Source of the DNA: Vicinamibacterales bacterium
Lineage (GTDB): Bacteria > Acidobacteriota > Vicinamibacteria > Vicinamibacterales > 2-12-FULL-66-21
DNA: 35,615 nt
Reading direction: 5' to 3'
Assembly (NCBI GenBank): GCA_050745085.1
Contig: JBOGJB010000140.1
Coordinates: 1-35,615 of the forward strand
Positions 2,385 to 21,567 of this stretch are shown here, in pieces. A program made the translations under genes and the position numbers. Numbering within the stretch: position 1 is the first letter of the stretch; the number at the start of each line of letters is the position of its first letter. A model generated the notes under the pieces. It was not told the origin of the DNA. It was given only the letters and a program-made list of their open reading frames with translations, and did no database searches.

Positions 2385-2385
2385 C

Positions 2386-4208: not shown

Positions 4209-4224
4209 GATAGGGGACGAGAGC

Positions 4225-4338: not shown

Positions 4339-4342
4339 TCCA

Positions 4343-4380: not shown

Positions 4381-4408
4381 AGCCCCCAGTCCCTCCAGAG
4401 GAACAGAG

Positions 4409-4783: not shown

Positions 4784-4811
4784 CAGTGACTGCTGATGGT
4801 GGATTGCTGAT
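4784..4811 (+). repeat. Short heptamer tract CAGTGAC TGCTGAT GGTGGAT TGCTGAT in the rpsM-rpsK spacer
   Basis: TGCTGAT occurs at 4791-4797 and 4805-4811, exactly 14 nt apart. The intervening unit shares the NNNTGAN pattern. Confidence 0.45.
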
Positions 4812-4813
4812 TT

Positions 4814-5263
4814 ATGGCCAAGACTGAACCGAAGGCGGAGCAGCCAGAGGGCGCGACGCCCGAAGGCGGAAAAAAACCGAAGAAGAAGACGTTCAAGAAA
4901 CGCGGCGAGAAGCGCATCGTCCACCACGGGGTGGCGAACGTCCGCGCGTCGTTCAACAACACGACGATCACGATTACCGACCCTGAGGGGCACGTGATCG
5001 CCTGGTCGAGCGCCGGCGCGGTCGGCTTCAAGGGGTCGCGCAAGGGGACGCCGTTCGCGGCGACGCAGGCGGCGATGAACGCCGGCAACGCCGCGAAGAC
5101 GTACGGCATGCGCACGCTCGAGGTGCGGGTGAAGGGGCCGGGCGCGGGCCGCGAGTCAGCGATCCGCGCGCTGCAGACCGTCGGGCTCGACGTCAAGTCG
5201 ATCCGCGACGTCACGCCGATCCCGCACAACGGGTGCCGGCCGCCGAAGCGACGAAGGGTTTGA
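4814..5263 (+). CDS. rpsK: 30S ribosomal protein S11 (with ~20-aa Lys/Pro/Glu-rich N-terminal extension)
   Basis: 149-aa [35 protein letters not shown]...[13 protein letters not shown] is typical S11. Confidence 0.95.
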
Positions 5264-5299
5264 CGATGACTGTGATGGTGATAGAGGTAGAGATACAGA

Positions 5300-5929
5300 A
5301 TGGCTAGGTATATCGGTCCCGTGTGTCGCCTGTGCCGCCGCGAAGGCATGAAGCTCTTCCTGAAGGGGGAGCGCTGCTACACCGAGAAGTGCGCGATCGA
5401 GAAGCGCAACATCCCGCCGGGGCAGCACGGTAAGATGCGCAAGGCGAAGCTCCTCGGCTACGGCCTGCAGCTCCGCGAGAAACAGAAGGTCAAGCGCATC
5501 TACGGCGTGCTCGAGAACCAGTTCCGCCGCTACTTCGAGGAGGCGGAACGGCAGCGCGGCATCACCGGTGAAACGCTGCTCCAGATGCTGGAGCGCCGGC
5601 TCGACAACGTGATCTACCGCCTCGGACTTGCGACCTCGCGGCCGCAGGCGCGGCAGCTCGTGCGCCACGGCCACTTCATGGTCAACGGCAAGAAGGTGGA
5701 CGTGCCGTCCTTCTCCGTCCGCGCCGGGGACGTCGTGACCGTGCGGGGGACGAGCGCCGAGAACACGGCGATCCAGCACGCGATGGAAGAGGTCAAGGGA
5801 CGCGGCATCCCCCAATGGCTCGAGTTCGACGCCGCGAAGCTGAGTGGGCGCATCGCATCGCTCCCCACGCGCGAGCAGATCAACCTGCCCGTGCAGGAGC
5901 AACTGATAGTGGAGCTGTACTCGAAATAG
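5300..5929 (+). CDS. rpsD: 30S ribosomal protein S4
   Basis: 209-aa ORF beginning [31 protein letters not shown] (zinc-ribbon S4 N-terminus), followed by an S4 RNA-binding domain. Confidence 0.96.
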
Positions 5930-5932
5930 AGA

Positions 5933-6033
5933 AATGCCGAATGCCGAACGCCGAAAGGGTCTGCACTCGCGACCGTCGGCGACTGTCGACGAGCGTAGAC
6001 GTTTTCGGCATTCGGTATTCGGCATTCGGCATT
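5933..6033 (+). repeat. Heptamer-repeat hairpin C (AATGCCG family): left arm 5933-5960, core, right arm 6006-6033
   Basis: The left arm reads AATGCCG AATGCCG AACGCCG AAAGGGT. The right arm reads CGGCATT CGGTATT CGGCATT CGGCATT. The core shares GCGAC...GTCGAC strings with the core of element B. The element starts 4 nt after the rpsD TAG. Confidence 0.92.
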
Positions 6034-6063
6034 GACGGAAGACAAACGAAAGGAATCACACCC

Positions 6064-7044
6064 ATGCTGTGGAAAGGTTTCCAGCGGCCGAAGCGGCTGG
6101 AGTTCGAGCGTGAGACGCTTACCGACAGGTTCGGCCGGTTCTACGCGCAGCCGTTTGAGCGCGGGTTCGGAACGACGATCGGGAACGCCCTGCGCCGCGT
6201 GCTGCTGTCCTCGGTCGAGGGAGCGGCGGTCACAGCGGTCAAGATCGAGGGGGTCCTCCACGAGTTCTCCCCGATCCCAGGCGTCGTCGAGGACGCGACC
6301 GACATCATCCTCAACCTGAAGCAGATCCCGCTGAAAATGCACGGCGATCACACGAAGACGCTGTACCTCAAAGCGGAGAAGCCGGGCGTCGTGCGCGCGC
6401 GGGACATCGAGACCGACGCCGACGTCGAGATCCTCGAGCCGGACGCGCACATCGCGACCGTGTCAGAGCACGGCAAGCTGCAGATGGAGATGCGCGTCAA
6501 GCGCGGGCGCGGCTACGTCGCAGCCGACAAGAACTTCGACGAGGACCTCGGCATCGGCTGGATTCCGATCGACTCGGTGCACTCGCCGATCAAGAAGGTC
6601 AACTACCTCGTCGAGGCGGCGCGCCTCGGACAGACCACCGACTACGACAAGCTGACCGTGGACGTCTGGACCAACGGCGCCGTGACGCCGCGTGACGCCG
6701 TGTCGCTCGCGGCCAAGCTGATCCGCGATCACCTGACGATCTTCGTCAACCTCGAGGAAGCGCTCGAGTCGGCGCCGGAGGCGGCCTCCGACACGCCCCG
6801 CGCGGCGCTCAACGAGAACCTCGACAAGAGCGTCGAAGAGCTGGAGCTTTCCGTCCGGTCCTACAACTGCCTCAAGAACGCGAACATCCGGACGATCCGC
6901 GAGCTGGTGCAGAAGACCGAAGGGGAGATGCTCAAGACGAAGAACTTCGGCCGCAAGTCACTGAACGAGATTAAGGAGATCCTGTCGACCATGGGTCTCA
7001 GCCTCGGGATGAGATTGGATCAACCGACTCACGCTCAGGAGTAA
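6064..7044 (+). CDS. rpoA: DNA-directed RNA polymerase subunit alpha
   Basis: ATG at 6064 is preceded by AAAGGAA. The sequence begins [17 protein letters not shown], has an N-terminal assembly domain, and has a C-terminal domain with [23 protein letters not shown] (the HhH of the alpha-CTD). The upstream part of the 409-aa track ORF runs through repeat C and is rejected. Confidence 0.95.
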
Positions 7045-7050
7045 ACGGTA

Positions 7051-7245
7051 AGTTCTTAGTGCTTGGTTCTTAGTGCTTAGTGTGATTTCCCTCGCGACTG
7101 ACTTCGCTGTTGTGGGTCTCGTGTCTTTGCTTGTTTCTTCTGCGTGCGCTGGCGGTGAACGCGACGCGTGGACAGCGAAGATCAATCACCGAAGACGCTG
7201 GCGAGCGAGGTCAGACTAAGCACTAAGAACTAAGCACTAAGAACT
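7051..7245 (+). repeat. Heptamer-repeat hairpin D: 31-bp stem (7051-7081 with 7215-7245) enclosing a 133-nt lower-GC core
   Basis: The left arm is AGTTCTT AGTGCTT GGTTCTT AGTGCTT AGT. The right arm is ACT AAGCACT AAGAACT AAGCACT AAGAACT. I checked it base by base and found 30 Watson-Crick pairs plus one G-U (7065 with 7231). The core has internal pairings CTTCGCTGT/ACAGCGAAG and CCTCGC/GCGAGG. Confidence 0.93.
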
Positions 7246-7258
7246 GTGAGGATCGAGA

Positions 7259-7867
7259 ATGCGTCACGGACGAGCACACAGAAAGCTGGGGCGGGTCGCC
7301 GACCATCGCGTCGCGATGCTCCGGAACCAGGCGCAGGACCTCCTGCGCCACGAGCGGATCCGGACGACGGTGCCGCGCGCGAAGGAGTTGCGGCCGTTCG
7401 TCGAGCGGATCATCACGATCGCCAAGCGAAGCCTCGCGGACGGCGGGATGACCCGCGGCGTCACCGCGCGGCGGCTCGTCGCCCGCGACATCCACGACCG
7501 CGCCGTCGTCGTCAAGCTGTTCGACACGATCGCGCCGCGGTTCGCGGAGCGGCCGGGCGGTTATACGCGGCTCCTCCGCCTCGGCCATCGCCGCGGCGAC
7601 GACGCCGAGGTCGCGCAGATCGAGCTCATCGGGAGCGAGTACAACCCAAGTGCGGCGACCGGGAAGACCGCGGGCGAAGGCGCGGCCCCCGCGAAGACGA
7701 AGGGGGTCGGCGGGCGTCTGCGCGCCGCCGCCGACCGGCTACGCGGCAAGAAGGCCGAGGCGCAGGCGGCGAAGTCCGAAGGTCGGAGGGACGCGGAGCC
7801 CAAGCAGGGCAAGACGCGGGCCACGGCCAAAGGTCCCAAGAAGGCCCGGACGCGCGACGACGAGTAG
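7259..7867 (+). CDS. rplQ: 50S ribosomal protein L17 with ~77-aa Lys/Ala/Gly-rich C-terminal tail
   Basis: 202-aa ORF beginning [53 protein letters not shown] (L17), with GAGGAT upstream. Confidence 0.95.
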
Positions 7868-7879
7868 CGCCGTCGGGCT

Positions 7880-8776
7880 CTACTCCTGCGCCTGCAGCTG
7901 GACTTCGATCACCTTGGCGTACTTGACCGGTTGCCCGTCCTTGAGCGCCGGCGTGAACGTCCAGTTCTGCGCAGCTCTCAGAAGCGCCGCGTCGTACGAC
8001 GTGTGAATCGCGCGGAGGAGCGTCACGCTCTCGACCTTGCCGGTTTCGTCGATGATGAGCCGCACGAGACCGCTGAGAACCGTCCCGCGGCGCAGGTTTC
8101 CTGGCGACCGCCAGGGCGGCAGATCCTGCACCATCGCTACCGGCACCGTGACACGCGGGTCGTCGCCGCCGTAGACGATCGGCGCCGGCGGTAGGGTCGG
8201 CACCGGGGCCGGCAGTGAAACCGTTCGAGCGGCCGCGGCGGCCGCGGCCTTTGCGCGGGCTAGCGTCAGCAGCCCATCGGCCACGAGGTGCAGGTCGTCC
8301 AATCCGTCGACGTCCTTGACCGCCGGATCCGACGTGATTCGGGCCACGCGATCGAGCTGCTCGATGGCCTGCTGGTGCTCCTGTCGTTCGAATAAGGCCT
8401 TCGCTGCCGCGAACTCCTTCCGGGCGACGCCCGGCAGCAGCTCGCGGCGTGTCTCGGCGAACAGGGTCGCAATTCTCGGCGTGACCTCGGCCTCCACTGG
8501 CACGTACAAGGGATCCCGTTCGACAATCCGTCTCACCGAGGCGCGCGCCTCGCTCTGCCGTCCAATTGCCAGCAGGCACAGGGCGCGGTACTGTTCCGCT
8601 TCGATCGCAATCGCGGTGTCGGTACCGTTCACGCTCGCCAGCACGCTGAGCGCATCTTCGTAGGACGCCGAGGCATAGAGCTCCCGGACGCTGGCCATCT
8701 GCGTCTGCCCCACCGCGGGTGACGCGATGAGGAACGTCAGGGCGATTCCCGTCACGATTCTGAGACCGCGTGTCAT
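7880..8776 (-). CDS. Secreted protein with TPR-like N-terminal region, Ala/Pro linker and TonB C-terminal-like domain
   Basis: 298-aa ORF with a signal peptide (LTFLIASPAVGQ). Its C-terminus, GLVRLIIDETGKVESVTLLRAIHTSYDAALLRAAQNWTFTPALKDGQPV, resembles the TonB_C fold. The start overlaps the upstream stop (ATGA). Confidence 0.7.
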   Translation of the reverse strand: MTRGLRIVTGIALTFLIASPAVGQTQMASVRELYASASYEDALSVLASVNGTDTAIAIEAEQYRALCLLAIGRQSEARASVRRIVERDPLYVPVEAEVTPRIATLFAETRRELLPGVARKEFAAAKALFERQEHQQAIEQLDRVARITSDPAVKDVDGLDDLHLVADGLLTLARAKAAAAAAARTVSLPAPVPTLPPAPIVYGGDDPRVTVPVAMVQDLPPWRSPGNLRRGTVLSGLVRLIIDETGKVESVTLLRAIHTSYDAALLRAAQNWTFTPALKDGQPVKYAKVIEVQLQAQE

Positions 8777-10117: not shown

Positions 10118-11500
10118 TCACTCCGGCGGCAGCTCGAACGAGATGAGATTCCTGCGGAAACCACGCGTCTGTACCGCGCCGTACAACACCCCGGCACCAA
10201 GCCACAGCGCGCCGGCCACCTTCGCCGGCCACCGCAGGCTGAGCCAGAGATACAGACAAAACAAGAACCCGGCGAGCGGCAGGACGAAGTCGGGCCATCG
10301 CCGTTCGGCGGAGCGCGCCCAGTAGCGCGTGAACGCGGCGAGGTTTACCCCCATGAAGGCGATGAAGGCGCCGAAGTTGAGCATCTCTGCGCCGAGCTGG
10401 AATCCGGTGCCGCCGGTGAACTGCGCGAAATAGTCGAGCGACAGGCCGCCGGCGAGCGCCAGCGCGCCGACGAGCAGCACGTTGTTCCGCGGGATTTGAC
10501 GGATCGGCTCGACCGCGCCGAAGAAGCCGCGTGGCAGCGCGTTCTGCCGACCCATCCCATACAGGAGCCGCGCCGCGCCGAGCTGCGCGCCGGTGCCCGA
10601 TCCCATGTTGGCGACGAGCAGCGTGGCGTTGAGGAGGGTGAAGAACATCGGACCGCCCGCCCTGCCCGCGACGTGCACGAACGCGGTATCGACGTCCGGG
10701 AATCCCTTCCAGTCGCCCCAGACGAGCTGCGCGGCGTAGACCTCCACCGACGCGAGCACGCCGATGATGAGACAGGTCAGGACGGTTGCCCGCAGGACAT
10801 TCCTCCGCGGGTCCTCGACCTCTTCGGACAGCGTCGAGATGCCGTCGAACCCGATGTAGGTCAGGCTCGCGATCGACGCCCCGGTGAGCACGAGCGGCAG
10901 CGAAAAGGTGGCCGGATCGTACAACGGCCTCGTGAGCGCGCCGTCCGGGAGCGGCGTGGCCAGCAGGTATCGCACCGCTGCGCCGAAGAAGAGCACGACC
11001 ACCACGGACATGCCGATCGCGAGCACCTCGTTCGTGCGCGCGCTCGCCTTCACGCCGCGCAGGTTGAGCCCCGTGAAGAGCGCCGCGAAGAACACGACCC
11101 AGGCCCAGTACGGGATCCCCGGCAGCACGTTCATCGCCGCCTTGCTGCAAAAGATCGTGCAGATCGTCGGGTTGAGGACGTAGTCCATGACCATGCTCCA
11201 GCCGGTTACGTACCCGAGTCCCGGGTGGAGCTCCTGCCCGACGTAGGTGAAGGCCGATCCGGCGCTCGGGTACGCGCGCGCCATGCGTCCGTAGCTCAAG
11301 GCCGTCAGGAGCATCGCGACCATGCCGATCAGGATCGTCGTAACGACGTGCCCGCGCGCTTCCGTGCTGACGACGCCGAAGATGCTCATCGGCGCGACCG
11401 GCTGGATGATGACGATGCCGTAGAAGACGAGATCCCACAGCGTCAGCGTGCGCTTGAGCGTCGCGGCCTGGGGCTGGCCTGCGGCGTTAGTGGCCGGCAT
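10118..11500 (-). CDS. APC superfamily (amino acid/polyamine/organocation) permease
   Basis: 460-aa ORF predicted to span the membrane about 12 times, with an N-terminal LKRTLTLWDLVFYGIVIIQPVAPMSIFG segment typical of APC permeases. Its start overlaps the upstream GH2 gene end by 14 nt. Confidence 0.85.
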   Translation of the reverse strand: MPATNAAGQPQAATLKRTLTLWDLVFYGIVIIQPVAPMSIFGVVSTEARGHVVTTILIGMVAMLLTALSYGRMARAYPSAGSAFTYVGQELHPGLGYVTGWSMVMDYVLNPTICTIFCSKAAMNVLPGIPYWAWVVFFAALFTGLNLRGVKASARTNEVLAIGMSVVVVLFFGAAVRYLLATPLPDGALTRPLYDPATFSLPLVLTGASIASLTYIGFDGISTLSEEVEDPRRNVLRATVLTCLIIGVLASVEVYAAQLVWGDWKGFPDVDTAFVHVAGRAGGPMFFTLLNATLLVANMGSGTGAQLGAARLLYGMGRQNALPRGFFGAVEPIRQIPRNNVLLVGALALAGGLSLDYFAQFTGGTGFQLGAEMLNFGAFIAFMGVNLAAFTRYWARSAERRWPDFVLPLAGFLFCLYLWLSLRWPAKVAGALWLGAGVLYGAVQTRGFRRNLISFELPPE

Positions 11501-14500
11501 CGGCGCGTGATTTTTCGCCGCTGAGGAATGACGCGATCAGGCTGCGCACGCCGTCACGGCTATAGGCGAAGAATACTTCGTCGGGCCGAGGGGCTCGCCT
11601 CAAGTAGTCGACCTCCGGGACCCGCGGATAGTCTGGACGCCGGGGTGCGCCCGGGTCGCCGCAAGCCGCCTGTTCGGCCGGGGAGAGCCGGAGGTCGTGC
11701 ATCGACTCCAGCGCGAACAGCTTCCTGCGCTGGAGCTCGGGGCTCAGGCGGTGCGAGTAGACCCGCTCGACGGGGATCTCGTCGCCGCCCCAGGGAGGCA
11801 GCGACACCTCGCTGTCGGCCGGGCCGAACGGGTATCGATCGCGCGCCGCGTGGTTGGTATAGAGCAGGAACTCCGGCTTGCCGTTCCAGCGCTCGAGCGC
11901 GTCGTCGACGGCCACCGCGGTGTACTGATGATCGCCGTGGGTGTCGAGAAGCGGGTGCGGCATCACGACGATGTCTGGCTTCGTCTTGCGGAGCACCTGC
12001 ACGATGTCCTCGACCAGGTGCACCCATGTTGCGGGGCGCGAGCCGTTCGGCAGCAGCCGGCTGACGTTCGCGCGCCTGTACGGCGCAACATCATGGTTGG
12101 GTCCGTACATCTCCGGAACCGCGGCGTCGGGACGCTCGCGCATCGTCTTCAGCCGGGCGTCGAAGTAGCCGAGGTTGTAGGCGCGCTCCGGCGGAATGCC
12201 CCCTTGCCACGGGACCGTCACGCTGTCGACGGCGCGCAAATATCCCTTGAGCTGATAGTGCTCGGCTGGATCGCTGACGTTGTCCTTGTAGTTGGCGTCG
12301 CCGGCATTGCCAGACGTCACCGTGACGATGGTCGCGTTCCGTCCCGCGTACAGCCCGAACGCCGCGATCTCCGCATCGTCTGGATGCGGCGCAATGATCA
12401 AGATCCGCTCTCCGAGATCGACGCGGTTTGCGAACGTCCGCACGGTGGCCTGGCCGGGCTCGATCGTGACGCCGTGCCCGCGCAGATCCACCGCCGCGCC
12501 GTCCGCGAGCTGGCCGCGCACTCCCGTCAGGTTCAGCCAGCGGAGCCCGGTGGCGTCTTCGTCGAGATACTGCCGGAGTCGCCCCGATCCAGCGGAGATC
12601 TCCACCCACGGTGCAGGAGCGAACGTGCTGACGCGGACGCCCAGCAGCGCGGTATCCCAGTCCGAGGCCGCGGGCCGCCAGGTGAACCTGACGCCGCCTT
12701 CCATCGCCGACAGCGTCTCGCTCCGCTCCTGGCTGGCGTCTGAACGGAAGCGATACGCGTCGTCGACGGGAGCCGCCAGAGCGCGCGGGCGCGGCGTGTT
12801 CCAGGCCTCCACGTCGATCCGTGGTGGCGTCAGGTCGGCCCGGCGCGGCCACGAAACGCCGATCTCGCGCTTTTCTCCCGGAAAGAGCTCGAAGTAGTTG
12901 TCCTCCCAGAAGACCGGCAGGATCTCTTCGCCGCTCCGCGGGTCGATCGCCTTCAGCCGTACCTGAAACGCGAGCGCTTTGCCCGTGTTCGCGATTGTGA
13001 CGCGACCGATTTCCTCCTTCCCTTTTGTTTCGAACGTCGCCGATGTCTCCAGTGTCGTCTCCGGGAGCCGCGCGAGCGCGGTCAGGTCGGAGTGCCGCGA
13101 CGTCGGCGTGTAATACCACTTGGTGTTCTTCCAGTCGAGCACGTCTTCCTGCGTCGAGAGCCAGTAGAAATTGGTGCTCCGAATTCGGCCGGCCGCGTCC
13201 TCGAGCCTGAGCCGGACGAAATACGTCGTGCTGAGACCGTCGAGGAGTGGAATCGTCAAAACGCGCACCACGCCGTCGGGGCCGACGTCGGTCCGTGCCT
13301 GGCGCGAGAACTTCTGCGCGAGATTCAGGTCGAAGACCTGAGCCGTGACCTTCAGGCCGGCGAACGACTCCTGCAGATCGTTGACGACGACGACCGAGCG
13401 ATCGTCGTACGAATACTGGACGTGCAGCGGCTCGCAGGCTTTCTTCGTGCCGAAGTAGCCGCCCCCCGGGCGCAGGTAGTAGTCGTAGAGGTGCCAGATC
13501 ATCGACGGCCAGGCGTTGTTCAGCATCCACTGAATCACGCCCGTCGACGTGTATTTGTTCCGGCCGAAGGCCTCGAACATCGCCCGCTGCCCTTCGTAGG
13601 TCAGCGCCTGCGACTTTCGCGCGTAGTCGTCCGCGCCGGTCGCCTTGCCGTAACGCGCCTCGAGCGCCTCGGTAAAGAGCTTGAGATCCTTGAACTCGTC
13701 GCCGCCGGCGTGGAACGTCCAGAACTGATCCATCGGCCACAGATGATCCTGGCCGAGCATGCGCGTGAGCGTGTCGATCGGCGGGACGGCCGCGCCGGGC
13801 CCGATCTCGGTCGCGAAGCCGAACGCGCCGCCGTTGGCAGTGTCGGTCAGCCAGTACGAAGGCGGAACGTAGTCGTACGGGCCGCGCATCTTCACGCCGC
13901 TCGGCCCGCTGACGGGGCCCGCCGCATCGGTCGCGTTCGAGAGGATCGGCTTGCTCCAACCGACCGCGGTGAGCATGTCGAGGTACGACCGCTCGACGTC
14001 GGCAGGCGGAGGAAAATCGCTGCCGTTCAGCCAGACGAGCACGCTCGGATGGTTCCGCAGCCGCAGCGCCTGGTCGCCGAGCGACGCCGGCGCGACCAGG
14101 TAGTCTTCGGCGTCCCACTCCTTCCACTTCTCCCATTGATCGCAGCAGCACCAGCCGGGCATCAGCAGGATGCCGTAGCGATCGGCGAGGTCGTAGAACT
14201 CGTCGGTCTCGAGCTTGCCTTCGAGCCGGATCGTGTTGAGCCCCATCTCGCGCGTGTAGCGCAGCTCCGCCTCGAGGCGCTCGCTCGACGCCGGACGCAG
14301 CATCATGTCAGAGGCCCAGCCGCCGCCGCGGATGAGCACGGGCTTTCCGTTGACCTTGAACAGGCGGTGCCCCTTCTCGGTCAGCTCTGATGTCATCTGG
14401 TGGATGCCGAAACTCGTTCGGCGCTCGTCGGACGGCTTTCCATCGACGTCGACGCCGATCGACAGGGTGTAGAGATGCTGAGCGCCGTATCGGTACGGCC

Positions 14501-15428
14501 ACCACACGCGGGGATTCTTGATCATGAGCGAGGCCTGTTCTTCGGGAGTGATCCTCACGGTGGTCTGCTGGCGCGGTCCGAGAGAGACCCGCTTCGAGAA
14601 CGTGATCGCCTCGATCGTGCCCCGGACAACCGCGCTGACCGGACGGTCGGTCGTGTTGCGCAGCTCGGCGCTGACCGTGAGGGCGGCCGTCAGGAGTGAC
14701 GGCACGTCGAGCCGGCTGCGGACGTACGGATGCCGCAGCGCGACCGGACCGCTGTCGGTCACGTAGACCTCTCCCCACAGGCCCATGTTCTTGTCAGCCG
14801 GCGTGGGGTTCCAATCCACCCACATCACCGCGAGGTCGTGCGGTTCGGGCGCGAGCACCTCGACGGCAACCGCGTTTCTGGCGCCGGCGCGCGCCGCCGC
14901 GGTCACATCGAACTCGTACCGCCGGAACGCGCCCGCAACGTCGGTGGCCGCCGCGATGCGCGCGCCGTTCATCCAGACGTTCGCGCGGTAGTTGATGCCG
15001 TCGAAGTGCAGCGCGAAGGATCGCCCGGCTTTGCCCGCCGGGATGTCGAACTCCGTGCGGTACCACCACGACGGCTTGAACGGACTGTCGGCCGGCATCG
15101 GCAGCAGCGTGAACCGCTCGCCGATCGGATACGTCGTCCCCGGGATCTGCCGCAGGTTCATGCCGAAGTACGGATCCTTGTAGGTCCCGTTCTCGACGAG
15201 CGCGCCGACGACCGTATTGGGGACGGTGATCCGGTGCCACCCGGTCGGCCGGTATTCCGCGCGCGAGATGGCGTCGCCGGCGTCGGGGGTTTTTGCGGAG
15301 GACTGGAGGGTCCACTCCTTTTTCAGCTCGAGCCGGGCGTCCTGAGCGGCCGCGGCGCTCGGCGCGAGGCCGATGAGACCGATGGCGAGCGAGATCAGGG
15401 CTCCCGGAGAGGGGAGCGTCGGGCGCAT
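11487..15428 (-). CDS. Secreted fusion protein: GH2 exo-beta-D-glucosaminidase-like domain (aa ~35-880) plus C-terminal PIG-L/LmbE-type deacetylase domain (aa ~1008-1250)
   Basis: 1313-aa ORF with a signal peptide. GH2 sugar-binding, Ig-like and TIM-barrel regions are present, with WLNGSDFPP (Asp codon 14016-14018) and GFATEIGPG (Glu codon 13806-13808). This resembles the CsxA-type subfamily, which uses an Asp acid/base. The C-terminal domain has IIAPHPDDAE and a later DTHGDHQ, the PIG-L zinc-ligand motifs. Confidence 0.85.
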   Translation of the reverse strand: MRPTLPSPGALISLAIGLIGLAPSAAAAQDARLELKKEWTLQSSAKTPDAGDAISRAEYRPTGWHRITVPNTVVGALVENGTYKDPYFGMNLRQIPGTTYPIGERFTLLPMPADSPFKPSWWYRTEFDIPAGKAGRSFALHFDGINYRANVWMNGARIAAATDVAGAFRRYEFDVTAAARAGARNAVAVEVLAPEPHDLAVMWVDWNPTPADKNMGLWGEVYVTDSGPVALRHPYVRSRLDVPSLLTAALTVSAELRNTTDRPVSAVVRGTIEAITFSKRVSLGPRQQTTVRITPEEQASLMIKNPRVWWPYRYGAQHLYTLSIGVDVDGKPSDERRTSFGIHQMTSELTEKGHRLFKVNGKPVLIRGGGWASDMMLRPASSERLEAELRYTREMGLNTIRLEGKLETDEFYDLADRYGILLMPGWCCCDQWEKWKEWDAEDYLVAPASLGDQALRLRNHPSVLVWLNGSDFPPPADVERSYLDMLTAVGWSKPILSNATDAAGPVSGPSGVKMRGPYDYVPPSYWLTDTANGGAFGFATEIGPGAAVPPIDTLTRMLGQDHLWPMDQFWTFHAGGDEFKDLKLFTEALEARYGKATGADDYARKSQALTYEGQRAMFEAFGRNKYTSTGVIQWMLNNAWPSMIWHLYDYYLRPGGGYFGTKKACEPLHVQYSYDDRSVVVVNDLQESFAGLKVTAQVFDLNLAQKFSRQARTDVGPDGVVRVLTIPLLDGLSTTYFVRLRLEDAAGRIRSTNFYWLSTQEDVLDWKNTKWYYTPTSRHSDLTALARLPETTLETSATFETKGKEEIGRVTIANTGKALAFQVRLKAIDPRSGEEILPVFWEDNYFELFPGEKREIGVSWPRRADLTPPRIDVEAWNTPRPRALAAPVDDAYRFRSDASQERSETLSAMEGGVRFTWRPAASDWDTALLGVRVSTFAPAPWVEISAGSGRLRQYLDEDATGLRWLNLTGVRGQLADGAAVDLRGHGVTIEPGQATVRTFANRVDLGERILIIAPHPDDAEIAAFGLYAGRNATIVTVTSGNAGDANYKDNVSDPAEHYQLKGYLRAVDSVTVPWQGGIPPERAYNLGYFDARLKTMRERPDAAVPEMYGPNHDVAPYRRANVSRLLPNGSRPATWVHLVEDIVQVLRKTKPDIVVMPHPLLDTHGDHQYTAVAVDDALERWNGKPEFLLYTNHAARDRYPFGPADSEVSLPPWGGDEIPVERVYSHRLSPELQRRKLFALESMHDLRLSPAEQAACGDPGAPRRPDYPRVPEVDYLRRAPRPDEVFFAYSRDGVRSLIASFLSGEKSRADAGH

Positions 15429-15463: not shown

Positions 15464-15494
15464 GTCACTTTAATAAACTACTTTCCAAAGTGAC
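15464..15494. promoter_or_regulatory. Candidate operator: perfect 8-bp inverted repeat GTCACTTT-N15-AAAGTGAC in the AT-rich divergent spacer
   Basis: GTCACTTT at 15464-15471 and AAAGTGAC at 15487-15494 are exact reverse complements. They lie in the 84-bp spacer between the GH2 fusion gene and the ROK regulator gene, which is the most AT-rich stretch nearby. Confidence 0.45.
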
Positions 15495-15512: not shown

Positions 15513-16730
15513 ATGAGGCTGCGGGCGAGCACGGACGAAACCGCCTGGGAAGCGGCCCATCTGCGCGCGCTGAACCTCGAGCGGGTTCTCGCCGTCGCGA
15601 TGGAGCGGCGAGCGCCCTTCACCCGCGCTCAGCTGATCGACGCCACCGGTCTGTCTGCGCCCACCGTCGGCAGTCTCACCTCGCAGCTCATTCGCACCGG
15701 CCTCGTGGCGGACCTTGGCACCGGACCTTCACGCGGCGGCCGCCGGCCATCTCTCATGGCGTTCAATCCTCGGTACGGGTTCGCGGCGGGCATCGACATC
15801 GGCCCGACCCGGACGCGACTCGCGGTCGCCGATCTCCGCGGCGAGACGCTCGCGCACAGCATCGTGCCGACGCCGTCGGGCGGCACGCCCGCGGCCACGT
15901 TGACGCGTCTCGCGGGCGATCTGCAAGCGCTGCTGAAGAGCGCGGACGTGGAGCCCGGCCATCTCCTCGCCGTCGCCGCCGGCGCGCCAGGTCCCGTGGA
16001 CATTGACCGGGGGATTGTCACCCTCGCGCCGAACCTCAAGGGCTGGACCGACGTGCCGATGCGCGACATCCTGCACGGCGCGCTCGGAGCGCCGGTGCTC
16101 GTCGAGAACGACGTGAACCTGGCGCTGCTCGGGGAGCACTGGCGCGGCGCCGCGCGCGGGCACGACACCTGCGCGTTCATCTTCGTCGGCACCGGTATCG
16201 GCGCGGCGTTCCTGATCGACGGCGCCATCCACCGCGGACATCATTTCATGGCGGGTGAGATCGCCGTGATGTGCATGGGGCCGCAGTTCGTCGAGCAGGA
16301 CTTCGGCAAGCGCGGCTGCCTCGAAGTGCTCGCCGGGCTCGAGGCGCTCGCAGCCCGGTGGCCGAAGGCCGCTGGACGTGACCCCGCGGGTTGGATGACG
16401 GAACTGTTCGATGCGGCCGAGCGGGGCGACAAGGATGCGCGCCGCGCGATCAACGAGACGGCGCGGCTGATCGGCATCGCGACCGCGAATGTGGGGACGG
16501 TCGTCGATCCGTCGATCGTCGTGCTCGGCGGCGCGCTGTTCGCGCAGGCGGAGCCGCTCGTGGTCGCCGTGCGCGAGGTCATGCAGCGGCTGTCGCGCGC
16601 TCCCGTTCAGCTCGTCGTCTCCGCGCTCGGGAAGGAGGCGCCGCTCGCCGGTTGCGTCCTCGTCGCGGCTACGGAGGCAAGGCGGCAGATCAGGTTGCAG
16701 CTTCGCAGTGGCCTGCGACGGGTGAGCTAG
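15513..16730 (+). CDS. ROK family transcriptional regulator (NagC/Mlc/XylR-like)
   Basis: 405-aa ORF with an N-terminal winged-helix region (FTRAQLIDATGLSAPTVGSLTSQLIRTGLV), followed by a ROK sugar-kinase-like fold (GIDIGPTRTRLAVADLRGE, ENDVNLALLGE). Confidence 0.88.
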   Translation: MRLRASTDETAWEAAHLRALNLERVLAVAMERRAPFTRAQLIDATGLSAPTVGSLTSQLIRTGLVADLGTGPSRGGRRPSLMAFNPRYGFAAGIDIGPTRTRLAVADLRGETLAHSIVPTPSGGTPAATLTRLAGDLQALLKSADVEPGHLLAVAAGAPGPVDIDRGIVTLAPNLKGWTDVPMRDILHGALGAPVLVENDVNLALLGEHWRGAARGHDTCAFIFVGTGIGAAFLIDGAIHRGHHFMAGEIAVMCMGPQFVEQDFGKRGCLEVLAGLEALAARWPKAAGRDPAGWMTELFDAAERGDKDARRAINETARLIGIATANVGTVVDPSIVVLGGALFAQAEPLVVAVREVMQRLSRAPVQLVVSALGKEAPLAGCVLVAATEARRQIRLQLRSGLRRVS

Positions 16731-16735: not shown

Positions 16736-16803
16736 AGTACGAAGCTCGAAGTACGAAGGCTGAAGTTGGTTCACTTCAGCCTTCGAACTTCGTCCTTCGT
16801 ACT
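16736..16803. repeat. Heptamer-repeat hairpin E between convergent genes: arms 16736-16766 and 16773-16803, 6-nt loop
   Basis: The left arm is AGTACGA AGCTCGA AGTACGA AGGCTGA AGT. 28 of 31 positions pair with the right arm. The right arm encodes the last 10 codons of the minus-strand CRTAC1 gene, and the stop codon (16771-16773) spans the loop-arm junction. Confidence 0.9.
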
Positions 16804-18483
16804 GGGGTTCGTATCCTGTCGGATCTCGACGACCTGATTCACCTTGATGTTCTTCTGCGTGGTGGAAGTCCCGTCCGGCCAGCGGACCTCCAACGAGTCG
16901 ACCGTCGCGGCCGGCCCCAGCCCGAAGTGCTGGCGGAGGTCTTCCTGTGAGAGGTAACTGCTTCCGCTCTGCACCAGTCGCTTCCGCACGGTAGAGCCCG
17001 TCCGCGCGGTCACGACCGCGCCGATCGCGTCGAGATTCTTACCCGCCCCCCGCAGCTTCACGAGCAGCCAATTGCCCGTTCCCGTCGACTCGTTGCGCAG
17101 GACCTGCGGGCTGCCGTCGAGATCGTTGATGACGAGGTCGAGCCGGCCGTCGTTGTCCAGATCCGACGCCGCCAGGCCGCGACTGACCCGTTCTTCAGTC
17201 ATGACCGGTCCGAACTGCGCCGCGACCTCGTCGAACGTGCCATCCCCGCGGTTGTGGAAGATCAGCTTCCGCTGCCGGTAGCCGGCGGATGCGCCGAGGC
17301 GCGCCTTGTCCATCTGCGGATACACGTGGCCGTTGACGACGATCATGTCGAGCAGGCCGTCGTTGTCGTAGTCGAAGAACGCATTGCCCCAGCCGACGAA
17401 CGGCAGGCTGACCGCGCCGGTCCTCGACCGGAACGCCCTCTCGGTGAAGTGATCGCCGTCGTTGTGAAAGAGATTGTTGTACTCTTCCGAGAAGTTGGTC
17501 ACGAACAGCGCGAAGCGACCGCAGTTGTCGTAGTCGCCGACTGCCACGCCCATGCTGCCCTGCTCCGCGCCGTCCTCGCTCACCGCGGCGCCCTGCGGGA
17601 AGCCCACGTCCTTGAACGTGCCGTCCTTCTGATTCACGTACAGAAAGTTCGCATTCGAGTCGTTCGCGACGTACAGATCGAGCCAGCCGTCCTCGTTGTG
17701 ATCGAACCACGCGAGGCCCAGCCCGAAGTAGCCTCGCGGATCGGCGACGCCCGCTTTCTGCGATACCTCCGTAAATCGTCCGGTGCCGTCGTTGTTGAAC
17801 AGGAAGTCCGACTCGCCGGGAAGCCCGCGCGGTCCGCATTGAACGGCGATGCCGCGGTACTCGCACGTCTTGTCCCGGCCGAACTGCGGCAGGTTGTCCA
17901 GATCGACCTTGACGTACCGCGACACGAACAGGTCGAGGTCCCCGTCCCGGTCGTAGTCGCCGAACGCGCATCCGGCCGACCACCCTCCGCCGCGCACCCC
18001 GGCTCGATCCGTGATGTCGGCGAACGTGCCGTCGTGGTTGTTGCGATACAGCCGGTTGCCGCCGAGCGCCGTCACGTGCAGATCCTGCCACCCGTCCGCG
18101 TCCACGTCCGCCGCGCAGACGCCCATACCCCAGCCAGGGTGGCCGACGCCCGCCTTGTCGGTCACATCCGCGAACGTCCAGTTGCCGAGATTGCGATACA
18201 ACGCGCTTCGAGCCGCCTTCGGGTCCTTCGAGGTTTCCACTGTCAGCGAATCAACGAGGTAGATGTCGAGCAGGCCGTCGTTGTCGAAGTCGAAAGTGGC
18301 GATCCCACCGCTCATCGATTCGACGATGTATTTCTTTTCGGGGGCGGCATGATGTTGAAAGATGATGCCGGCCTCGCGGGTGACGTCGCGGAAGCGCGAT
18401 CCAGTGGCACCAGGCGGCGCGGCAGGGGGACCGGCGGCCTGCGATGCCGTCAGGATCATGGCGAGCGCTACATGGCGTGTCAT
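16771..18483 (-). CDS. CRTAC1 family protein (FG-GAP/VCBS repeats plus ASPIC/UnbV C-terminal domain)
   Basis: 570-aa ORF with a signal peptide and repeated DxDxDGxxD calcium-type loops (FDFDNDGLLDIYLV, DVDADGWQDLHV, DYDRDGDLDLFV). Its C-terminus, NWLLVKLRGAGKNLDAIGAVVTARTG...GSSYLSQEDLRQHFGLG, is typical ASPIC/UnbV. ATGA overlap with the upstream gene. Confidence 0.88.
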   Translation of the reverse strand: MTRHVALAMILTASQAAGPPAAPPGATGSRFRDVTREAGIIFQHHAAPEKKYIVESMSGGIATFDFDNDGLLDIYLVDSLTVETSKDPKAARSALYRNLGNWTFADVTDKAGVGHPGWGMGVCAADVDADGWQDLHVTALGGNRLYRNNHDGTFADITDRAGVRGGGWSAGCAFGDYDRDGDLDLFVSRYVKVDLDNLPQFGRDKTCEYRGIAVQCGPRGLPGESDFLFNNDGTGRFTEVSQKAGVADPRGYFGLGLAWFDHNEDGWLDLYVANDSNANFLYVNQKDGTFKDVGFPQGAAVSEDGAEQGSMGVAVGDYDNCGRFALFVTNFSEEYNNLFHNDGDHFTERAFRSRTGAVSLPFVGWGNAFFDYDNDGLLDMIVVNGHVYPQMDKARLGASAGYRQRKLIFHNRGDGTFDEVAAQFGPVMTEERVSRGLAASDLDNDGRLDLVINDLDGSPQVLRNESTGTGNWLLVKLRGAGKNLDAIGAVVTARTGSTVRKRLVQSGSSYLSQEDLRQHFGLGPAATVDSLEVRWPDGTSTTQKNIKVNQVVEIRQDTNPSTKDEVRRLK

Positions 18484-19361
18484 CGCGATTGCCCGTCTGG
18501 ACCGCCGGGCGTTCTGAGGGTCTTCACCCGCTCTTCCATCTCACGCAACTTCTGTTGATACAGGTCCACGTGCCTACGCGCCGCTTCGGCGTCTCCTAGG
18601 CGGGCGTACGCGAGGCTGAGCTGATAGTGGATCTTCGGCGAGGCGACATCGATCGCGGCGGCCGCGAGCAGTGCGTCCCGCGCTTCGGCGTACTCTCCCC
18701 TCTTGATCAAGACCATACCGAGGACCAGATGGGCCGTGGCGTGCCCGCCCGCCTTCGCGAGCGCGCGTCGAGCGTGCCCGTCGGCCGCGTCGAGTTCGCC
18801 GAGTCCTTCTTCCGCCTCCGCCAGCGCGGCCGTGGCGTCGACGCTGTCGGGGTCGCGCTCGAGCGCACGCGCGAGAGAGGACTTCGCTTCGGCATACTGC
18901 TTGCGGTTGTTCAGGGCCAGCCCCAGCGCCGTGAGCGTCAGGGCCTTGTCGGGTTCGAGGCGATCCGCTTCACCGAGCGAGTCGACGGCCGCTTCCATGT
19001 CGCCCGCCTGCATCAGCGCCACGCCGCGCAGATAGTGATACTCCCCGACCGTTGGGCAGATGCGCGTGAGCGCGTCGAGTGCCACGAGCGCCAGGATGGG
19101 CCTGTGCGCCGCCAAAGACACCTGGGCGTAGGCACTCAGCACTTCTTCCGAATTCGGTGCGATCGCGCGCGCCTTGCGAAGCGAGTCGAGAGCCGCCGAC
19201 GCGTTCCCTTCCTGGACCTGCGTCCTCGCGAGCTGCATCAGCGCCCGCACCGACTGCGGACTTGCAGACTGGGCCTCCGCACCGGCCGCGGCGACCAGAA
19301 TGGCTCCCAGCACCATGGCACCCAGCACCACCTTCGGCATTCGGCATTCGGCCTTCGGCAT
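18480..19361 (-). CDS. Secreted tetratricopeptide (TPR) repeat protein
   Basis: The start is taken at ATG 19361 (MPKAECRMPKVVLGAMVLGAILVAAAGAEAQS, a signal peptide). ATG at 19340 is an equally plausible start. Both ATGs are supplied by AATGCCG repeat units. The longer track ORF would overlap the upstream gene. Confidence 0.8.
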   Translation of the reverse strand: MPKAECRMPKVVLGAMVLGAILVAAAGAEAQSASPQSVRALMQLARTQVQEGNASAALDSLRKARAIAPNSEEVLSAYAQVSLAAHRPILALVALDALTRICPTVGEYHYLRGVALMQAGDMEAAVDSLGEADRLEPDKALTLTALGLALNNRKQYAEAKSSLARALERDPDSVDATAALAEAEEGLGELDAADGHARRALAKAGGHATAHLVLGMVLIKRGEYAEARDALLAAAAIDVASPKIHYQLSLAYARLGDAEAARRHVDLYQQKLREMEERVKTLRTPGGPDGQSR

Positions 19362-19371
19362 TGGACTAAGG
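19331..19371. repeat. Half-element F: single array CGGCATT CGGCATT CGGCCTT CGGCATT followed by GGACTAAGG, no inverted partner
   Basis: The units sit at 19335-19362 and use the same heptamer as elements B and C. The adjacent 9-mer GGACTAAGG (19363-19371) matches the element A unit and contains the stop codon of the upstream TPR gene. Confidence 0.85.
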
Positions 19372-21567
19372 CGTCCTCCCCCTGCGCTTGTCCTTGAGCT
19401 GGCGATAGCGCTCGAGGCGGTCCTCGGCAAGCGCGCTCCGCCCGAGTTTCTGATAGGCCTGTCCGAGCTGGTAGTAGATGTTGGCGTCCTCGGGCGCATG
19501 GCGCGCCGCCGCCTCGAGCTGTTCGACCGCTGCGGCGGCGTCCCCCTGCGCCAGCAGGATCTTGCCCAACAGGTACCGCGCGTCGGCGTAATCGGGCTTC
19601 ACCCGGATAACCGATCGCACGAGCGACAGCGCCTCGTCACGCCGGCCGTCCAGGTCGAGAACGGCGGCGAGATGATAGCGCGCGCTCACGTCATCCGGAC
19701 GCGATTTCAACTCCGAGCGCAACGCCTCGGCCGCCTCAGACAGCCGGCCCTGTTTAAAGTAAATGACGCCCAGCGTGGCGTTCGCTTCCGCGACATCGGG
19801 CTTGATCTGCAGGGCACGATGCAGCGTCCGGACGGCGGCCTCGAAGTCTCCCTGCTGCGCGTGCGCCTGGCCGAGGACGACGTTCATCTCGGCGTGGTCG
19901 CCGTGCGCCGCGAGGAGCCGGGTGAAGATCGCCTCCGCCTCTGCGCCGCGATCGCTCCGCACGAGGGCAACACCATATGCGTACTGCAGCGACGGATCGG
20001 ATTCCCGCTGCGGATCGTCACGCAACAGGTCGGCAGCCTTCCCGTAGACCTCGGCGTTCAAGTAGCTGAGGGCGAGCATGCGGCGGGTGCCGATGTCGTC
20101 CGGTCTGGCGGCGAGCGCGCCTGCGAGCGGTCCGCTCGCTTTCTGGTACTGCTTTGCGTTGAAGTAGGCCACGCCGAGCGAGTACTGCACTTGCGGGAAC
20201 TGGGGATCGAGGAGCGCCGCCTGTTCGAAGAACTCCACAGCACGCAGGAACCGATTCGCCTGCGCCTGCATGATCCCGAGATTGAAGTACACGCGCGTCA
20301 GCGCGACCGTGATCCGGCGTTGCAGCTCCCGCCGAGCCGCAGGCGGCTCAATCGTGAGCGGAGACGCGCCGAGCCCGATTGGAGACTGAGGGTCCGGGGT
20401 GTCCTCGAGATAGCGCGCGAGCTGCTCGCGCGAGCGCTCGACGCGTCGTTCGGAGAGACGCTGCGCCTCGGCGAAGTGCTCGGCTGCTTCCTGAAAGGCG
20501 CCCGTCTTCCTGAGCGCGACGCCGAGCTGATAGTGGACGTGTCCGGCGCGGGTCTCGTCGACAGGAGGCTGCTGCACCAGCTGAAGCGCCTTTCGAAGCG
20601 ACACCAGCGCCTCGGCGGTCCTGTCGAGCGCGAGCTGACTCCGCCCGAGATAGTAGAACGCAAGCGCTGGGACCGGTTCGGCGCGCGCCGCCAGGCGGAG
20701 TGCGGGGAGCGCCTCAGCGGCACGCTGCGCCTCGACGAGCGCCATGCCGAGCCGGAGATTGGTGACGGGGTCGGCAGGCGAGAGTTGCAGCTCCTGTCGG
20801 AACTCGGCGATCGCCTCGTCGAGCCGAAGTACCCCCTCCTCCAGGACGCTCAGCGTACCCAGATAGTAGTGAGCGCGCGGCACCCGCGGGTTTTTCTTCA
20901 GCGCCGTTAGGAGCGACGCGCGGGCGCGATCGTAGTGTCCCGAGTCGCGGTAGGTCCGGCCGATGAGGACGTAGGTCTGTGGCAGCGGCTTCGCCTTGAT
21001 CACCTCGGCGAACAGCCGCTCTGCGGCATCGAGTTTCTTCAGCCGGAGATACCCCGACGCAAGGGCAAACGCCAGCTCCGGATCGTCCGGCGCCGTCCCT
21101 CGCGCCTCTTCGAGCTCCTGCACTGCCTCGTCCGGATGGCCGTCGGCGAGCAGGGCCTGGGCGAACAGGCGCCGTGTCGCGACGTCCCGCGGGTTCGCTC
21201 GCGCAAGCTGGGAGAGAATCTTCATCGCCTCTCCGGCTTCGCCGAGCTGGAGATGCACGAGCGCGAGCGAGTGCAGCGACCCGCCGGTTTCCACCGCGGA
21301 GGTCGAGGCGCGCCGGAATGCCTCGCGCGCGTCGGTCAGCCGGCCATTCGATGCGTGGACCGCGCCCAACAGCATCCATCCTTCGACTAGCGCGGAGCGG
21401 TAGCGGCTTTCGGCGATCTGCAGCTCGTTCTCGCGCAGGCTCGCTTCAGCGGCAGCCATGGTCTGCTCGACCGCTGCAAGCGGATCGACGGACGGGGTCT
21501 GCGGTTGGGAACGCGCGGCCGACGCCGCGAGCAGACAGCACGCCGCCAGGCTGACGATTCTCCGCAT
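19366..21567 (-). CDS. Secreted multi-TPR repeat protein (733 aa)
   Basis: The start is taken at ATG 21567 (MRRIVSLAACCLLAASAARSQPQ, a signal peptide), 10 nt after the upstream stop. TPR-like A/L/Y-rich 34-aa periodicity runs throughout. The N-terminal 110 aa of the track ORF overlap the sulfatase-like gene and are Arg/Ser-rich. Confidence 0.85.
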   Translation of the reverse strand: MRRIVSLAACCLLAASAARSQPQTPSVDPLAAVEQTMAAAEASLRENELQIAESRYRSALVEGWMLLGAVHASNGRLTDAREAFRRASTSAVETGGSLHSLALVHLQLGEAGEAMKILSQLARANPRDVATRRLFAQALLADGHPDEAVQELEEARGTAPDDPELAFALASGYLRLKKLDAAERLFAEVIKAKPLPQTYVLIGRTYRDSGHYDRARASLLTALKKNPRVPRAHYYLGTLSVLEEGVLRLDEAIAEFRQELQLSPADPVTNLRLGMALVEAQRAAEALPALRLAARAEPVPALAFYYLGRSQLALDRTAEALVSLRKALQLVQQPPVDETRAGHVHYQLGVALRKTGAFQEAAEHFAEAQRLSERRVERSREQLARYLEDTPDPQSPIGLGASPLTIEPPAARRELQRRITVALTRVYFNLGIMQAQANRFLRAVEFFEQAALLDPQFPQVQYSLGVAYFNAKQYQKASGPLAGALAARPDDIGTRRMLALSYLNAEVYGKAADLLRDDPQRESDPSLQYAYGVALVRSDRGAEAEAIFTRLLAAHGDHAEMNVVLGQAHAQQGDFEAAVRTLHRALQIKPDVAEANATLGVIYFKQGRLSEAAEALRSELKSRPDDVSARYHLAAVLDLDGRRDEALSLVRSVIRVKPDYADARYLLGKILLAQGDAAAAVEQLEAAARHAPEDANIYYQLGQAYQKLGRSALAEDRLERYRQLKDKRRGRTP

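Follow-up and report, generated by a model that had tools for sequence, protein, structure and literature searches.

What would a single exported polypeptide accomplish that joins a glycosidase of the glucosamine (GlcN)-releasing type to a deacetylase of a family that acts on N-acetylglucosamine (GlcNAc)? The question is raised by an uninterrupted open reading frame (ORF) on contig JBOGJB010000140.1 (positions 1 to 35,615; assembly GCA_050745085.1) of a Vicinamibacterales bacterium (Acidobacteriota); this whole stretch of 35,615 nucleotides (nt) is referred to here as the window. A first-pass annotation had read the product as one secreted polypeptide combining a glycoside hydrolase family 2 (GH2) enzyme with a PIG-L deacetylase, and this reading holds: both modules lie in one ORF, their junction is repeated in an independent assembly, and a putative signal peptide precedes them. 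We consider it probable, with real room for doubt, that the protein is a Sec-exported and probably periplasmic bifunctional enzyme that arose by in-frame fusion of neighboring genes and converts chitin or chitosan oligomers to GlcN by stepwise deacetylation and exo-cleavage.

Sequence comparisons place the N-terminal half with CsxA, the exo-beta-D-glucosaminidase of Amycolatopsis orientalis. The protein opens with MRPTLPSPGALISLAIGLIGLAPSAAAA, followed by QD, which by inspection and hydropathy shows the n, h, and c regions expected of a Sec signal peptide; this putative signal peptide contains no lipobox cysteine, so the fusion protein is not expected to be a lipoprotein. Pfam assigned the GH2 domain set (N-terminal, Ig, and TIM-barrel domains) to residues ~116-878, including Ig_GlcNase (PF18368; residues 771-878, E = 4e-29), a domain specific to exo-beta-D-glucosaminidases. 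In a phmmer search of the Protein Data Bank (PDB), CsxA (2VZS) was by far the best match (E = 2.2e-187, residues 37-913). In CsxA, S468-D469 serves as acid/base, E541 is the nucleophile, and Glu394 interacts through its charge with the C2 amine of a GlcN residue (PMC6566704). Each of these has an aligned counterpart in the window protein: S470-D471 in the motif NGSDF, which begins at 468, aligns to S468-D469; E541 in TEIG, which begins at 540, aligns to E541; and E403 in RLEG aligns to E394. All four residues (S470, D471, E541, and E403) are invariant in 120/120 related GH2 sequences. On every sequence-level count, the GH2 half belongs to the CsxA subfamily. It holds the complete catalytic equipment, from which we infer GlcN-releasing activity.

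The C-terminal module was modeled with AlphaFold from 48 homologues (predicted local distance difference test [pLDDT], 89.3; predicted template modeling score [pTM], 0.91). The model comprises ~425 amino acids (aa) (889-1313): a beta-sandwich of ~115 aa, followed by an alpha/beta PIG-L domain of ~310 aa with insertions and a C-terminal extension. In the latter, the Rossmann-like fold of the PIG-L family was recognized by AlphaFold and Foldseek. Pfam matched PF02585 to residues 1010-1177 with 51.2 bits against a gathering cutoff of 28.2, and the top Foldseek matches in the PDB were the PIG-L enzymes Dbv21 (3DFI) and MshB (4EWL and 1Q74), each with a probability of 1.0 (TM-score, 0.45-0.58 normalized to the target; sequence identity, 15-18%). 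The motif HPDD begins at 1015 and HGDH at 1164. In the diacetylchitobiose deacetylase (Dac) of Pyrococcus chitonophagus (Pch-Dac), His40-Asp43-His151 is the zinc triad and Asp42 is catalytic (PMC9779004); H1015, D1018, and H1167 align to the triad and D1017 to Asp42. The module also has invariant histidines of its own, for example, that in SMHDLR. The beta-sandwich matched no Pfam family and gave only weak carbohydrate-binding-module-like matches in Foldseek; it may possibly bind carbohydrate.

Together, these comparisons and the model place the module securely in the PIG-L/CE14 superfamily and show its catalytic equipment to be intact. The annotation had correctly anticipated the CsxA-type Asp acid/base and Glu nucleophile in their NGSD and TEIG contexts, the two zinc motifs, the Pfam assignments of both halves, and a C-terminal PIG-L fold with its metal ligands; its estimate of ~250 aa for the C-terminal part was too short. 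Within the superfamily, the module belongs, by its alignments, to a divergent subfamily that has no characterized close relative, and it lies outside the Dac orthologous group (EC 3.5.1.105). Its solved relatives by sequence are the archaeal Dac enzymes, TT1542, and MshB, which align in the two motif regions only (E ~0.002-0.01; for Dac, E = 0.0045 with a single sequence and 0.0017 with a family profile), and no close full-length similarity to Tk-, Pf-, Ph-, or Pch-Dac was found. The subfamily is large, with 336 representatives at 50% clustering (E < 1e-30); the longest representative among the 150 nearest 50%-identity clusters has 805 aa. For neither half is there a curated equivalog, since the NCBIfam GH2 and BshB matches were all below threshold.

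How the two halves came to be joined can be read from proteins in which they are separate. In a search with the full protein, stand-alone GH2 proteins of ~880 aa were the rule, and fused proteins were also recovered. The C-terminal 434 aa used as a query gave 1535 matches; the top 120 are without exception stand-alone, with lengths of ~440-480 aa and 59-77% identity across 85-100% of the query. Each stand-alone PIG-L homologue has its own N-terminal signal peptide and then a conserved DDxYRF start. Each stand-alone partner carries one signal peptide, the fused protein carries one at its N terminus, and none is retained at the junction of any fused protein. Because unfused GH2 proteins end in ...AWNxPRxxx, we read the linker PRPRALAAPV as the GH2 tail (xPRxx) joined to what is left of the c-region of a former PIG-L signal peptide. 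An in-frame deletion spanning an overlapping stop and start would be expected to leave such a linker. The comparison was made with protein termini because locus L084, home of the closest unfused GH2 relative (P0127), has no PIG-L gene.

The fusion recurs beyond the window. Protein P0121 (1322 aa) is 81% identical to the window protein and P0123-P0126 (1248-1315 aa) are 65-67% identical, while P0122, a partial sequence of 908 aa from an independent NCBI metagenome-assembled genome of the Vicinamibacterales, differs at 2/908 residues and has the identical junction. Linkers differ in length (10 aa in the window protein, 25 aa in P0121, and ~17 aa in P0123-P0126), and all are hydrophilic. A trivial explanation, namely, an error of sequencing or assembly or the loss of a stop codon, was considered and rejected: a sequencing error would not produce such a linker, P0122 has the same junction, other clusters are fused as well, and the PIG-L signal peptide has been cleanly removed.

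We built bootstrapped neighbor-joining trees (100 replicates) for each half separately. The fused proteins fall into two groups, A (the window protein and P0121) and B (P0123-P0126), which formed a clade in 0/100 bootstraps. Instead, all 100 bootstraps of either tree joined group A to unfused proteins and left group B outside; these unfused proteins are P0127-P0129 in the GH2 tree and P0001-P0002 in the PIG-L tree. Since the unfused state is much commoner and more widely distributed, the most parsimonious history for these sequences is that the fusion arose at least twice independently; a single fusion with later fissions is the formal alternative.

Recurrent as it is, the fusion is rare. It was found in six 90%-identity clusters of the protein collection, in 0/79 loci from GTDB species representatives, and in no further case among the 80 metagenome loci listed, which were scanned as contigs with alignment of the junction (GH2 and PIG-L as separate adjacent genes, 7; permease directly 3' of GH2, 10; other, 49). 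A homologue search with the junction-spanning segment (aa 771-1010) returned only fragments of <=418 aa and missed P0121-P0126, and it was not used as a census. Searches of full-text literature, with subscription journals mostly outside their coverage, yielded no description of a GH2::PIG-L fusion or of the paired bacterial genes behind it, and in databases the partner proteins bear only automatic names (exo-1,4-beta-D-glucosaminidase and LmbE/PIG-L family deacetylase). The annotation's impression that such a fusion has no characterized example is thereby sustained.

Both fusion groups share the gene order ROK, fusion, permease, and the unfused loci reveal the arrangement from which it would derive. 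Two neighboring genes with overlapping ends, each encoding its own signal peptide, are the usual state and are found in more than 100 relatives. Locus L002 has the order ROK, GH2, PIG-L, permease, with a 1-nt overlap of GH2 stop and PIG-L start, and contains an additional short ROK kinase-type gene. Locus L004 has the order ROK, GH2, PIG-L, SIS, with a 28-nt overlap; its SIS protein consists of the GlmS isomerase domain only (E = 2e-57), and its matches to NagB-II and archaeal GlmD GlcN-6-P deaminase models were below cutoffs. Linkage was counted in 16 distinct loci, the window locus excluded, that have a PIG-L protein of >=57% identity and a sufficient length of upstream sequence: a GH2 gene lies <=6 kb from the PIG-L gene in 15 of them (13 strong and 2 weak matches). 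The GH2 and PIG-L genes are a conserved pair that is probably translationally coupled. The 15 linked loci include a version from Steroidobacteraceae and other gammaproteobacteria, in which a TonB-dependent receptor gene is followed by GH2 (a 941-aa protein that includes Ig_GlcNase), sulfotransferase, MFS, and PIG-L. The sulfotransferase-family gene (281 aa) and the MFS gene lie between GH2 and PIG-L at L014 3710-5859 and also in L011, L015-L017, L019, and L023, which puts a sulfotransferase gene into an amino-sugar cluster that looks catabolic.

The partners of the GH2 gene also vary in an informative way. Six proteins of ~1320 aa (P0137, P0143, P0145, P0147, P0154, and P0158) are permease::GH2 fusions, with an APC permease at the N terminus and a CsxA-type GH2 at the C terminus. 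In P0145, a segment like the GH2 signal peptide is kept between the two parts (RARLERSWPFVAAAILALVIPSAASGAEKRQ); from its sequence, it could be an extra transmembrane helix that places the GH2 part in the periplasm, tethered to the presumed GlcN importer. The cluster in which P0145 lies contains no PIG-L gene and has a YdjC (ChbG-family) deacetylase gene beside ROK, which fits a non-orthologous replacement of the deacetylase partner. Some close GH2 relatives are likewise without PIG-L, so that PIG-L looks like an accessory to a core of GH2, permease, and ROK. Locus L086 has the order ROK, GH2, permease, as well as a sulfatase gene. In L084, whose GH2 protein P0127 is the closest unfused relative (80% identical), only permease fragments follow GH2 (7613-7924), and this locus is decaying in the P0127 lineage. 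Neither NagA nor a GlcNAc transporter was found in the examined loci, in which the only permeases are of the APC or MFS type. Taken together, the conserved overlapping pair, the repeated fusion, and the YdjC swap strongly support a functional coupling of GH2 and PIG-L at the level of gene content.

In the mechanism that we propose, the PIG-L domain would act as a zinc-dependent amidohydrolase with H1015, D1018, and H1167 as ligands and D1017 as general base, taking the acetyl group off the GlcNAc at the non-reducing end of oligomers of chitin or partly acetylated chitosan and releasing acetate. To our knowledge, every characterized PIG-L enzyme de-N-acetylates a GlcNAc moiety. The GH2 domain would be a retaining glycosidase, with D471 as acid/base, E541 as nucleophile, and E403 paired with the protonated C2 amine, and would cleave the exposed beta-1,4-linked GlcN. 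Since the E403 pocket pairs with a free amine, a CsxA-type enzyme requires a GlcN end, which deacetylation would create, and the PIG-L accessory would let a GlcN-specific exo-enzyme pass acetylated residues. By alternation of the two steps, an oligomer would yield GlcN and acetate outside the cytoplasm, and the fusion would keep both activities co-localized, at 1:1, on one polypeptide. The co-transcribed permease belongs to the APC family, which is annotated for amino acids, not sugars; the conserved operon and the permease::GH2 fusions suggest that it may import GlcN. In the cytoplasm, GlcN would be phosphorylated and then deaminated; a ROK kinase gene and a GlmS-isomerase-like SIS gene are present in related loci, not in the window. 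The divergent NagC/CsnR-like ROK protein is the candidate repressor of the locus.

Extended beyond the window, this scheme becomes a tentative proposal that we hold with less than even confidence: soil Vicinamibacteria, and Steroidobacteraceae with unfused genes, may use an undescribed periplasmic, GlcN-centered route for chitin and chitosan oligomers, in which an exported PIG-L protein of ~450 aa would unblock chain ends, GH2 would clip them, and an APC permease would import cationic GlcN. Such a route would be convergent with the archaeal Dac/GlmA system, and the fused active sites would cooperate on one chain. Vicinamibacterales are among the taxa most labeled by activity probes for chitinase and N-acetylglucosaminidase (NAGase) in soil (PMC12649754).

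Several observations weigh against the proposed mechanism. Both activities, the substrate, and the order of the reactions are what we infer from sequence, and the match of the PIG-L module to solved enzymes is so marginal that substrate specificity is not transferable by homology. An AlphaFold model of aa 346-1313 (pLDDT, 73; pTM, 0.53), in which the truncated TIM barrel was poorly modeled, gave no confident packing between the domains and so speaks neither for nor against physical channeling. The window contains neither a chitinase nor a chitosanase gene. A PIG-L partner is lacking for many CsxA-type GH2 genes, among them the close relatives in L084 and L086; conversely, none of the loci with a PIG-L protein <=51% identical has a GH2 gene nearby, and GT2 or GNAT domains are joined to some distant proteins of the long PIG-L family. 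This family is thus not uniformly catabolic, and its more distant members appear to occur in other, partly biosynthetic contexts. PIG-L and YdjC genes are neighbors in L005 and are therefore not strict alternatives. Among fusions in the same long PIG-L family (P0297, P0350, and P0244) are a GH3::PIG-L protein (805 aa; GH3 N-terminal domain only, NagZ-like), a GT2::PIG-L protein (790 aa), and a PIG-L::GNAT protein (724 aa).

These points bear most directly on the identity of the glycan. The same bifunctional enzyme might act on another polymer of GlcNAc and GlcN, such as a bacterial exopolysaccharide, poly-GlcNAc that has been deacetylated in part, a glycan derived from cell walls, or a sulfated amino-glycan. 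The PIG-L subfamily without a characterized close relative, the GT2 and GNAT fusions suggestive of polysaccharide biosynthesis or modification, the sulfotransferase between GH2 and PIG-L in the Steroidobacteraceae cluster, the sulfatase genes in the window and in L086, and the missing chitinase would all suit such a substrate. We nevertheless regard it as unlikely, for the GH2 half retains all residues behind the beta-GlcN specificity of CsxA (E = 2e-187 over 37-913), and a NagC-like ROK protein, a GlmS-isomerase-like SIS protein, and a YdjC/ChbG-family deacetylase are the neighbors expected for catabolism of chitin-derived amino sugars.

A second alternative keeps the substrate and reverses the logic: GH2 would trim GlcN from chitosan oligomers, and PIG-L would mainly deacetylate the freed GlcNAc monomer or GlcNAc-terminated leftovers, so that everything reaches a GlcN-specific permease as GlcN. 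Archaeal Dac also deacetylates free GlcNAc (PMC6566704, PMC9779004), and the lack of NagA and of a GlcNAc transporter in the examined loci, with their APC or MFS permeases only, agrees with this order of events. It is a variant of the scheme proposed above and fits the fusion evidence equally well; we give it a lower probability still than a different glycan. That the fusion is an artifact, or the PIG-L part a decayed, non-catalytic appendage (for example, a binding module in place of the CBM35 found at the equivalent C-terminal position of CsxA), is very improbable, for even though the unfused arrangement is overwhelmingly the norm, an independent assembly has the identical junction, five further fused clusters have differing linkers, the PIG-L signal peptide is gone in a way that simple read-through or a frameshift would not bring about, and the six residues that serve catalysis or metal binding are all intact and do not vary among homologues, whether fused or unfused.

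The stepwise degradation of chitin or chitosan oligomers by a bifunctional exported enzyme remains our preferred reading, and the surroundings of the fusion gene in the window can be viewed with it in mind (Table 1). The gene order is TonB_C, PEGA, APC permease, fusion gene, divergent ROK, and FG-GAP/ASPIC and tetratricopeptide repeat (TPR) genes. The permease ATG lies 14 nt inside the end of the fusion gene, an overlap also present in the contig of P0121 (L001), so that the two genes are probably translationally coupled. The ROK protein aligns full-length to NagC and Mlc. The AT-rich intergenic region of 84 bp between ROK and the fusion gene contains the perfect inverted repeat GTCACTTT-N15-AAAGTGAC, a candidate ROK operator; with one mismatch per arm allowed, this is its sole match within the window. 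A similar element is found in L001 and L084, and more distant loci have a different common AT-rich motif (...CTTAAnnAAGTCTTGCCAA).

Table 1. Coordinates of the fusion gene, its parts, and other features of the window
Feature	Position	Strand	Basis or remark
Whole fusion ORF, GH2 (CsxA-type) plus PIG-L/CE14	11487..15428	-	1313 aa plus stop, uninterrupted
Putative Sec signal peptide, aa 1-28, MRPTLPSPGALISLAIGLIGLAPSAAAA	15345..15428	-	Inspection and hydropathy
CsxA-type GH2 exo-beta-D-glucosaminidase module, aa 29-878, C-terminal end ...VEAWNT	12795..15344	-	2VZS match and Pfam
GH2 E403	14220-14222	-	Invariant in 120/120 homologues
GH2 D471 of S470-D471	14016-14018	-	Invariant in 120/120 homologues
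GH2 E541	13806-13808	-	Invariant in 120/120 homologues
Fusion linker PRPRALAAPV, aa 879-888	12765..12794	-	Compared with unfused GH2 C termini and PIG-L N termini
Beta-sandwich, aa 889-1003, N-terminal part of the long PIG-L module	12420..12764	-	AlphaFold; starts with conserved DDxYRF
PIG-L/LmbE (CE14) deacetylase domain plus C-terminal extension, aa 1004-1313	11490..12419	-	PF02585 and Foldseek
PIG-L H1015	12384-12386	-	Invariant in 126/126 homologues
PIG-L D1017-D1018	12375-12380	-	Invariant in 126/126 homologues
PIG-L H1164-G-D-H1167	11928-11939	-	HGDH motif; H1164, D1166, and H1167 invariant in 126/126 homologues
APC-family permease, 460 aa, candidate GlcN importer	10118..11500	-	Pfam and NCBIfam; same position in L001, L002, L085, and L086; overlaps fusion gene at 11487-11500
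Divergent ROK-family protein, 405 aa, candidate locus repressor	15513..16730	+	Divergent position kept in L002, L004, L084, L085, and L086
Perfect inverted repeat GTCACTTT-N15-AAAGTGAC, candidate ROK operator and promoter	15464..15494	.	AT-rich 84-bp ROK/fusion intergenic region
Sulfatase-TPR fusion protein	21578-23641	-	
CarboxypepD_reg/Plug/beta-barrel TonB-dependent-receptor-like outer membrane protein	23668-27147	+	
BglX-like GH3	27107-29068	+	Overlaps preceding receptor-like gene

The window contains other features as well. The sulfatase-TPR, receptor-like, and GH3 genes (21578-29068) look like a separate glycan-uptake unit, and the GH3 protein was excluded as a NagZ-type partner, being BglX-like. 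A gene for an FG-GAP/ASPIC (UnbV) repeat protein and TPR genes adjoin ROK in the window (16771-21897) as well as in L002, L004, and L084, and a second FG-GAP/TPR/ASPIC set lies at 31189-35312. Positions 993-7867 hold the end of a ribosomal-protein/RpoA cluster (SecY, methionine aminopeptidase, RpoA, and L17); in contig L001, the fused gene of P0121 occupies the same position beside these housekeeping genes.

Bifunctional fusions of carbohydrate-active enzymes are common in general, and the chemistry proposed for the GH2::PIG-L fusion is the expected one. Here, known enzyme families occur in a new and naturally recurring combination, which points to an undescribed bacterial pathway variant. A repeated natural fusion is among the strongest purely genomic evidence for two enzymes working sequentially on one substrate, and these fusions assign a likely and easily testable function to a large uncharacterized subfamily of exported PIG-L proteins. 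Vicinamibacteria are abundant in soil and have few cultured representatives. Our analysis suggests that they deacetylate chitin or chitosan fragments outside the cytoplasm and import GlcN, unlike the textbook GlcNAc route; an extracytoplasmic deacetylation route of this kind would bear on genome-based inference of soil carbon and nitrogen turnover. As a candidate glucosamine transporter of a new type, the linked APC permease, together with its natural fusions to GH2, is open to testing. A single mesophilic polypeptide that takes acetylated chito-oligomers to glucosamine could also serve enzymatic production, for which separate archaeal Dac and GlmA are now used.

The closest functional precedent is the archaeal chitin pathway of the Thermococcales (PMC6566704, PMC9779004), which the first-pass annotation had also named. 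The two-step logic is shared: Dac (CE14/PIG-L; PDB 8BGN, 3WL4, and 3WE7) deacetylates the non-reducing GlcNAc, GlmA then releases GlcN from the chain end, and the route continues through a GlmS-isomerase-like GlcN-6-P deaminase. The Zn triad and catalytic Asp are common to Dac and the window module. The parallel goes no further at the level of descent. Dac and GlmA are separate proteins, and on the exo-glucosaminidase side the likeness is functional, not orthologous, because GlmA belongs to GH35, not GH2. On the deacetylase side, the module is no Dac ortholog either: Dac is a hexamer of ~270-aa subunits in which a catalytic His (His259* in Pch-Dac) comes from the neighboring subunit (PMC9779004), whereas the window module has ~425 aa, an extra beta-sandwich, and similarity at the motif level only.

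Among PIG-L enzymes of known structure, the best matches to the C-terminal domain, MshB and Dbv21/Orf2*, act on GlcNAc-inositol and glycopeptide pseudoaglycones, respectively; they are cytoplasmic biosynthetic enzymes and lack the beta-sandwich and the C-terminal extension. An unrelated protein offers an analogy of function. ChbG, encoded in the chb operon of Escherichia coli, deacetylates a chitin-derived oligosaccharide and so makes it cleavable by ChbF, a glycosidase that cannot handle the N-acetylated form. The ChbG/YdjC family differs from PIG-L in fold and family and is cytoplasmic, and it is YdjC that takes the deacetylase role in the GH2 cluster without PIG-L.

CsxA itself shares with the GH2 half the domain set including Ig_GlcNase, the Ser-Asp acid/base, the Glu nucleophile, and the amine-binding Glu. 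CsxA ends in a CBM35 that binds uronic acid and anchors the enzyme to the Gram-positive cell wall; in the window protein, whose host is a diderm acidobacterium, the beta-sandwich and PIG-L deacetylase stand in that position. The regulation has a parallel in Streptomyces, where chitosan genes, among them those for chitosanase and GH2 GlcNase, are under the ROK repressor CsnR (PMC6097792). There, too, a ROK regulator is tied to genes for catabolism of chitosan oligomers, but the CsnR regulon has an ABC transporter in contrast to the APC permease of the window and contains no PIG-L gene. Further relatives are the uncharacterized, unfused pairs of GH2 and long PIG-L in Vicinamibacteria and Steroidobacteraceae, which are 60-80% identical to the respective halves and lie in the same kind of locus, with ROK followed by GH2, PIG-L, and permease. 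They consist of two genes with overlapping stop and start and two signal peptides; the window locus has lost that stop along with the second signal peptide, and one chain carries both modules.

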